Source: Escherichia coli | Lineage (GTDB): Bacteria > Pseudomonadota > Gammaproteobacteria > Enterobacterales > Enterobacteriaceae | NCBI RefSeq assembly: GCF_003334405.1 | Contig: NZ_QOWM01000005.1 | Length of the DNA: 64,000 bases | Strand: one strand, 5' to 3' | Shown here: positions 44,950-45,201 of the stretch, piece by piece | How the letters are laid out: the number at the start of each line of letters is the position of its first letter | How positions within the stretch are numbered: position 1 is the first letter of the stretch | Translations under genes and position numbers: made by a program | The notes under the pieces: model-generated | What the model was told of the DNA's origin: nothing | The model's database searches: none | Seen by the model: the letters and a program-made list of their open reading frames with translations, nothing else

Positions 44950-45201
44950 ATACTGTATGGCCTGGAAGCTATATTTCGGGCCGTATTGATTTTCTTGTCA
45001 CTATGCTCATCAATAAACGAGCCTGTACTCTGTTAACCAGCGTCTTTATCGGAGAATAATTGCCTTTAATTTTTTTATCTGCATCTCTAATTAATTATCG
45101 AAAGAGATAAATAGTTAAGAGAAGGCAAAATGAATATTATCAGTTCTGCTCGCAAACGAATTCCCGTACACTGAACTCTCTGGCTCACTGAGGGCACCAT
45201 C

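Follow-up and report, generated by a model that had tools for sequence, protein, structure and literature searches.

A 14-codon open reading frame upstream of yjbD in Escherichia coli is probably a chance frame overlapping a candidate promoter

Does the 14-codon small open reading frame (sORF) in the spacer between lysC and yjbD of Escherichia coli specify a leader peptide, or is it fortuitous? The question arose from an initial annotation of the DNA analysed here, a 64,000-nucleotide (nt) stretch of NCBI RefSeq assembly GCF_003334405.1 (contig NZ_QOWM01000005.1; hereafter the window), which described the sORF as an ATG-initiated frame preceded by a Shine-Dalgarno (SD) motif and left both readings standing. 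Comparison of the locus between and within species points to the second. We put the probability at about 0.85 that the sORF is a chance, lineage-specific frame without a conserved coding or leader function.

The sORF and its start signals are unremarkable

The sORF lies on the plus strand at 45130-45174, where an exact match and its translation identify it as a single occurrence of 14 codons and a stop (ATG AAT ATT ATC AGT TCT GCT CGC AAA CGA ATT CCC GTA CAC TGA) encoding the peptide MNIISSARKRIPVH. Its start ATG occupies 45130-45132 (4231703-4231701 on the minus strand of MG1655, whose coordinate equals 4276833 minus the window position) and its TGA 45172-45174. The sequence elements first described (agagaagg motif, ATG, peptide and TGA) are all present exactly so. 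The span originally assigned to the sORF, 45142-45186, is wrong by 12 nt, beginning at codon 5 and overrunning the stop; likewise, the gap from the stop to the yjbD ATG at 45202 is 27 nt and not the 15 nt that had been reported.

The SD-like agagaagg (45118-45125, plus strand) is weak. Four nucleotides separate G45125 from A45130, and the best duplex with the 16S tail reaches -5.1 kcal/mol, contains an internal mismatch and leaves 3-4 nt to the ATG, a strength equalled or beaten at 15% of the ATGs in the window. The motif exists as described, but the weakness of the duplex and its closeness to the ATG do not bear out the 'suitable' distance attributed to it. Chance ORFs had been anticipated in so AT-rich a spacer, and rightly: the 252 nt between lysC and yjbD have a G+C content of 38.5%, and 9.7% of 5,000 random 252-nt sequences with the dinucleotide statistics of the spacer, or roughly one in ten, hold at least one same-strand ORF of at least 14 codons with an SD and an ATG. 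Across the whole window such ORFs occur at a density of 0.35 per kb per strand. Given this chance rate and this density, the sORF is real but statistically unremarkable. No gene is annotated between lysC and yjbD in the RefSeq records checked, including NC_000913.3.

The 14-codon frame is not conserved

The DNA is identical to that of E. coli K-12: a 361-nt query has 100% identity to MC4100 and further K-12 derivatives, and we refer to this version of the locus as that of K-12. It was compared with 80 other yjbD loci from Enterobacteriaceae, one per species, for a panel of 81 species including K-12. The initial annotation had named in advance an unconserved reading frame as an outcome that would count against the sORF, and across Enterobacteriaceae the frame is indeed not conserved: a homologous ATG-initiated frame ending at the K-12 stop was found in 0 of the 80 other species, and 32 species have no stop at the position of the K-12 TGA, reading TGG, TGC or TCG there.

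The pattern among the closest relatives is similar. The ATG is missing from three of the six Escherichia relatives, namely E. albertii (L002), L003 (with CAC in its place) and L004 (with AGG). The DNA upstream of codon 10-11 is unrelated to that of K-12 in L002 and L005, while in L003, L004, L006 and L007, which retain this stretch, the CGA that forms codon 10 in K-12 is replaced by a stop (TGA or TAA). The 14-codon form is therefore specific to E. coli proper. One observation weighs against so recent an origin for every part of it: L006 and L007 also have the ATG, which there opens a 9-codon frame, so the start codon itself predates E. coli proper to some extent. In the Escherichia relatives, 13 distinct substitutions were counted, distributed 6:4:3 over codon positions 1, 2 and 3, a split that shows no third-position excess and hence no sign of purifying selection on the frame.

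We also looked for conservation of position without conservation of sequence. Any ORF with an SD and an ATG, at least 6 codons long and starting no more than 120 nt upstream of yjbD, was counted; 3 of the 81 species have one, below the 5.8 ± 2.3 found after shuffling, and conservation of position is thus absent as well.

Variation within E. coli was assessed in 5,426 complete genomes with a 50-nt probe that runs from the SD through the ATG to codon 7. The K-12 allele is present in 3,869 of them (3,828 exact). An alternative allele, ...gaagagaacaaaGGaatatt..., which reads AGG for ATG and has an altered SD region, accounts for a further 1,471 (27%; 1,314 exact), and strains that carry it have an intact yjbD encoding the same protein, WP_001207638.1. 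Of the two readings originally offered, leader peptide or fortuitous ORF, the comparisons thus support the fortuitous one, a leader peptide being at odds with a frame shared by none of the other species and a start codon absent in more than a quarter of E. coli.

The sORF straddles a homology breakpoint

To profile conservation along the spacer, all sequences were aligned by anchoring on a TACACT-type hexamer and information was expressed in bits per column. The profile stays low from the SD through the ATG to codon 10 (~0-0.5 bits per column; ~0-0.4 bits over agagaagg, which is moreover altered in the AGG allele) and rises abruptly at 45161. The rise marks a conserved 13-nt block, TTCCCGTACACTG (45161-45173, plus strand; consensus TTnCCGTACACTG; 1.1-2.0 bits per column), which extends over codons 11-14 of the sORF and the TG of its stop. 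A sensitive blastn search confirms the boundary: homology of the K-12 spacer to Salmonella arizonae, two Citrobacter and E. albertii runs from 45157-45161 into yjbD. Since homology to other genera and to E. albertii begins only at ~45157-45161, codons 1-10 lie in Escherichia-specific filler DNA.

We propose that the first nine to ten codons of the sORF, together with its ATG and SD-like motif, are AT-rich filler unique to E. coli and its closest relatives, and that this filler occupies the site where other lineages have panS or a three-gene island. The sORF would then straddle the breakpoint, with codons 11-14 and the stop contributed by the conserved block. Its TGA would exist only because the block reads ...ACTGA in K-12, where many species have ...ACTGG. 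As the stop and the last four codons sit on conserved DNA, part of the sORF would look conserved to a scan blind to reading frame. The case is a useful negative, in which comparative evidence alone dismisses an SD-bearing mini-ORF beside a real gene. The sORF itself is of little importance as a gene; of the by-products, the variability of the lysC-yjbD junction is worth carrying forward, and the conserved block yields a testable prediction of where the promoter of yjbD, a DUF3811 gene as yet uncharacterised, lies.

A candidate -10 element at the 3' end of the sORF

Within the block, TACACT (45167-45172, plus strand) is a candidate -10 hexamer for yjbD, a function suggested by the conservation of TAnAnT. 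Of the 81 species, 76 have TACACT, 2 have TAGACT and 1 has TACATT, which makes 79 with TAnAnT. The hexamer lies 27-31 nt from the yjbD ATG (33 in one case) despite a very variable lysC-yjbD interval. It fits the TAnnnT pattern of a sigma-70-type -10 and keeps its site upstream of the gene. In the non-Escherichia clade A, the hexamer is followed by G-rich bases, a conserved AC whose A is exactly 7 nt downstream, a leader and the SD GAGGG. The corresponding yjbD SD in the window (GAGGG, 45190-45194, plus strand) is conserved across genera, stands at a 7-nt spacing from the ATG at 45202 and forms a duplex of -6.1 kcal/mol.

We lean towards the block being the -10 element of yjbD, a reading that these alignments make somewhat probable. 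Set beside what is generally known of sigma-70 core promoters that depend mainly on their -10 region, the block shows several likenesses. Its TAnAnT keeps a constant spacing to the start codon and tolerates substitutions at hexamer positions 3 and 5 alone; a G-rich discriminator and, 7 nt downstream, an A are found in most genera; and the upstream DNA is interchangeable between lineages. It differs from such promoters in lacking a TG extended -10 motif and in holding the flanking TTnCCG, as well as the C of positions 3 and 5, more tightly than a generic -10 would need.

Several further observations weigh against a promoter at this site. The -35 region at 16-18 bp is poor, with TTCTGC at 17 bp in K-12 and no more than 0.7 bits over the region; bases -15/-14 are CC, leaving no TG extended -10; and a sigma-70 consensus scan did not call a promoter at the hexamer. 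The block is also kept more strictly than an ordinary -10, in all six hexamer bases and in its flanks. Compared by eye with the sigma-32, sigma-E, sigma-28 and sigma-54 consensuses and with several regulator boxes, it showed no convincing fit, and in the window it recurs only with 2 mismatches (8 matches in all versus 3.9 expected). A literature search on the promoter or regulation of yjbD or DUF3811 returned unrelated mentions only (a G-quadruplex screen; the Bacillus yjbD, which is spx).

On the simplest reading of the alignment, yjbD transcription would start near 45179 (4231654 on the minus strand of MG1655), ~7 nt downstream of the TACACT -10, and the message would carry a leader of ~23 nt with its own SD. 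Because the putative -10 hexamer falls at the 3' end of the sORF, most of the sORF would lie upstream of the yjbD transcript. It would then be translatable only through read-through of the lysC terminator or from a weak upstream promoter. That terminator, a strong intrinsic one between lysC and the sORF (44955-44996, plus strand), was identified by a terminator scan as a 13-bp stem (44955-44986) followed by TGATTTTCTT, with a fold of -19.6 kcal/mol. The sole consensus promoter in the spacer able to put the sORF on an mRNA is a sigma-70 match, TTAACC-16-AATAAT (45033-45060, plus strand), which is weak (9/12 matches) and not conserved. The promoter scan of the spacer found this 1 site against 0.8 expected in shuffles; it sits upstream of 45072, the point from which the K-12 spacer is homologous (87% identity) to the island-bearing E. 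coli allele, and its hexamers are not retained in that allele.

Translation of the sORF in K-12 may nevertheless occur, and this is a point against regarding the frame as wholly inert. Some 400 novel translated ORFs have been reported in E. coli, most without evidence of function (Stringer, Smith, Mangano and Wade; bioRxiv 10.1101/2021.07.02.450978). If translated at all, the sORF belongs to this unconserved class of 'pervasive translation'. Like its members, it is very short, intergenic and AT-rich, has a weak ribosome-binding site (RBS), is unconserved past close relatives and bears no signature of purifying selection; unlike them, as they are translated, it is known here from sequence alone. 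The sORF is absent from the portion of the supplementary table of that study, in BL21 coordinates, that we consulted, and the peptide string MNIISSARKRIPVH was not found in the literature searched.

Alternative readings of the block and of the sORF

A different account of the block makes it a sequence-specific site in the 5' leader RNA of yjbD, or a dedicated operator, with transcription starting further upstream and the sORF lying inside the yjbD mRNA. The strictness of its conservation and the lack of a good -35 or TG speak for this account. So do 16 Enterobacter-type loci in which a helix, described below, begins at hexamer base 5, implying transcripts that cover the hexamer, and two genera in which just 46-47 nt, containing no terminator, separate lysC from yjbD. 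We nonetheless hold it to be unlikely, if with a real share of the evidence. Variation in the hexamer falls only on positions 3 and 5, where a sigma-70 -10 is under least constraint; the hexamer stands at a fixed spacing from the ATG, with a conserved A 7 nt downstream in clade A; the DNA 5' of the block shows no relationship from one lineage to the next, which leaves no common upstream promoter; and the E. coli yjbD leader is without stable structure. An RNA element or operator would in any event leave the sORF unconserved.

The helix just mentioned was observed in 16 loci of Enterobacter, Lelliottia and Leclercia type (among L053-L081), whose YjbD starts MATPRL. They share a perfect 10-11 bp inverted repeat, CTGAAGCCTC(C)-loop-(G)GAGGCTTCAG, and the resulting helix contains the yjbD SD (for example L067, ~2969-3000). 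RNAalifold assigns it -20.2 kcal/mol; there is one compensatory pair, and where only one arm has changed the result is mostly a G.U pair. The 5' arm starts at hexamer base 5, which sits uneasily with a -10 element at this site: the helix can form only in transcripts begun upstream of the hexamer, as its 5' arm starts inside it. In this clade the upstream gene, panS or lysC, stops 11-25 nt before the hexamer, with no terminator. One reconciliation could be that the SD is sequestered in read-through transcripts and free in those initiated at the hexamer; alternatively, the inverted repeat could be a palindromic operator. The other option, an action of the block in the RNA, is unlikely.

More speculative is the idea that a K-12-type micro-ORF, expressed by read-through or from the weak promoter, modulates the yjbD core promoter, or that the block is an RNA or operator site specific to DUF3811 genes. 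We consider this a long shot. In the former case, ribosomes, or the RNA polymerase transcribing the micro-ORF, would run into the core promoter and give 71% of strains an input to yjbD that AGG-allele strains lack.

Slighter still is the chance that the sORF is a regulatory leader peptide whose translation controls yjbD through attenuation, translational coupling or opening of the yjbD RBS. It does lie on the yjbD strand, 27 nt upstream, and its ATG has some SD complementarity; it also resembles the amino-acid attenuator leaders trpL, thrL, hisL, pheL, ilvL and ivbL, as they are generally known, in its 14-codon size and in its same-strand position upstream of a gene adjoining an amino-acid biosynthesis gene. 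Unlike those leaders, it lacks both a run of regulatory codons and a terminator/antiterminator pair, is not conserved, and lies downstream of lysC, which is itself under a lysine riboswitch (an Rfam match upstream of lysC, 43312-43508). A terminator scan found no terminator-like site in 45130-45202, and the predicted folds of 45100-45215 and 45160-45215 are weaker than those of shuffled sequences (z = +1.8 and +1.3). With neither a terminator nor a stable RNA structure between the sORF and yjbD, nothing about the sORF is attenuator-like. No residue of MNIISSARKRIPVH occurs more than twice in a row and there is no lysine, threonine or methionine run, although arrest motifs were not systematically searched. 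Coupling is disfavoured by the 27-nt gap and by the independent SD of yjbD. The frame is absent elsewhere and lacks its start codon in many E. coli, while yjbD and the proximal block are conserved; upstream ORFs before yjbD are not enriched over shuffles; and a conserved -10-like hexamer falls within the sORF.

Least likely of all is a young, E. coli-specific small-protein gene for a 14-residue basic peptide with its own function: although the exact K-12 50-mer is retained in 3,828 genomes and E. coli translates short ORFs by the hundred, purifying selection is not apparent on most of them (Stringer et al., bioRxiv 10.1101/2021.07.02.450978), identity over the 50-mer is what close relatedness alone predicts, and the sORF is unannotated in the records examined, has a common AGG allele without the ATG, is stopped at codon 10 in sister lineages and shows no codon-position bias.

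The lysC-yjbD junction and its surroundings

The local gene order is pgi (minus strand), lysine riboswitch, lysC (plus), yjbD (plus) and rluF (minus). The gene identities given at the outset for lysC (43600-44949, plus strand) and yjbD (45202-45474, plus strand) hold. Beyond the lysine riboswitch of lysC, the Rfam scan returned just a sub-threshold chance match, and no family in the spacer.

The junction between the two genes is a hotspot of insertion and deletion, occupied by panS, by a three-gene island or, in K-12, by nothing. The island is found in 27% of complete E. coli genomes, and the island-bearing strains are those whose sORF start reads AGG. Its products are a zeta-toxin family protein, a nucleotidyltransferase-domain protein and a slipin family protein; in E. 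coli FORC_029 (L087), for example, it spans 8716-11602, and the insertion point corresponds to a position upstream of ~45072 in the window spacer. We considered whether it is a known defence system and rejected this, as PADLOC gave no significant match.

Most non-Escherichia loci have panS between lysC and yjbD (for example L067, 2006-2950), whereas K-12 has none. Its identity as the ketopantoate/pantoate/pantothenate transporter gene comes from an NCBIfam equivalog match of 548 bits. The K-12 spacer is not a decayed panS, a possibility rejected because tblastn gave just chance matches (E about 1 or higher).

The length of the lysC-yjbD interval varies accordingly with lineage. It is 46-47 nt in a Pluralibacter metagenome-assembled genome (L053) and in Yokenella regensburgei (L069), 161-550 nt in Escherichia, S. 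arizonae and one Citrobacter, ~1.06-1.4 kb in most genera and >1.9 kb elsewhere, with a maximum of >3 kb. L053 and L069 (~2950-3000) leave no room for a terminator after lysC. Their TACACT stands ~11 nt past the lysC stop, so any -35 element would have to lie within lysC.

On the minus strand, ATG-initiated ORFs of 79 codons (45087-45326) and 58 codons (45115-45291) run antisense over the sORF and the start of yjbD; these are presumably spurious shadows of the yjbD coding region. Downstream of yjbD, the region 45505-45615 of the window contains a GC-rich imperfect palindrome (ccctcaccctaaccc...ggggcgagggg) that resembles a repeated extragenic element, followed in the convergent yjbD/rluF gap by two terminator-like hairpins at 45564-45581 and 45599-45614.
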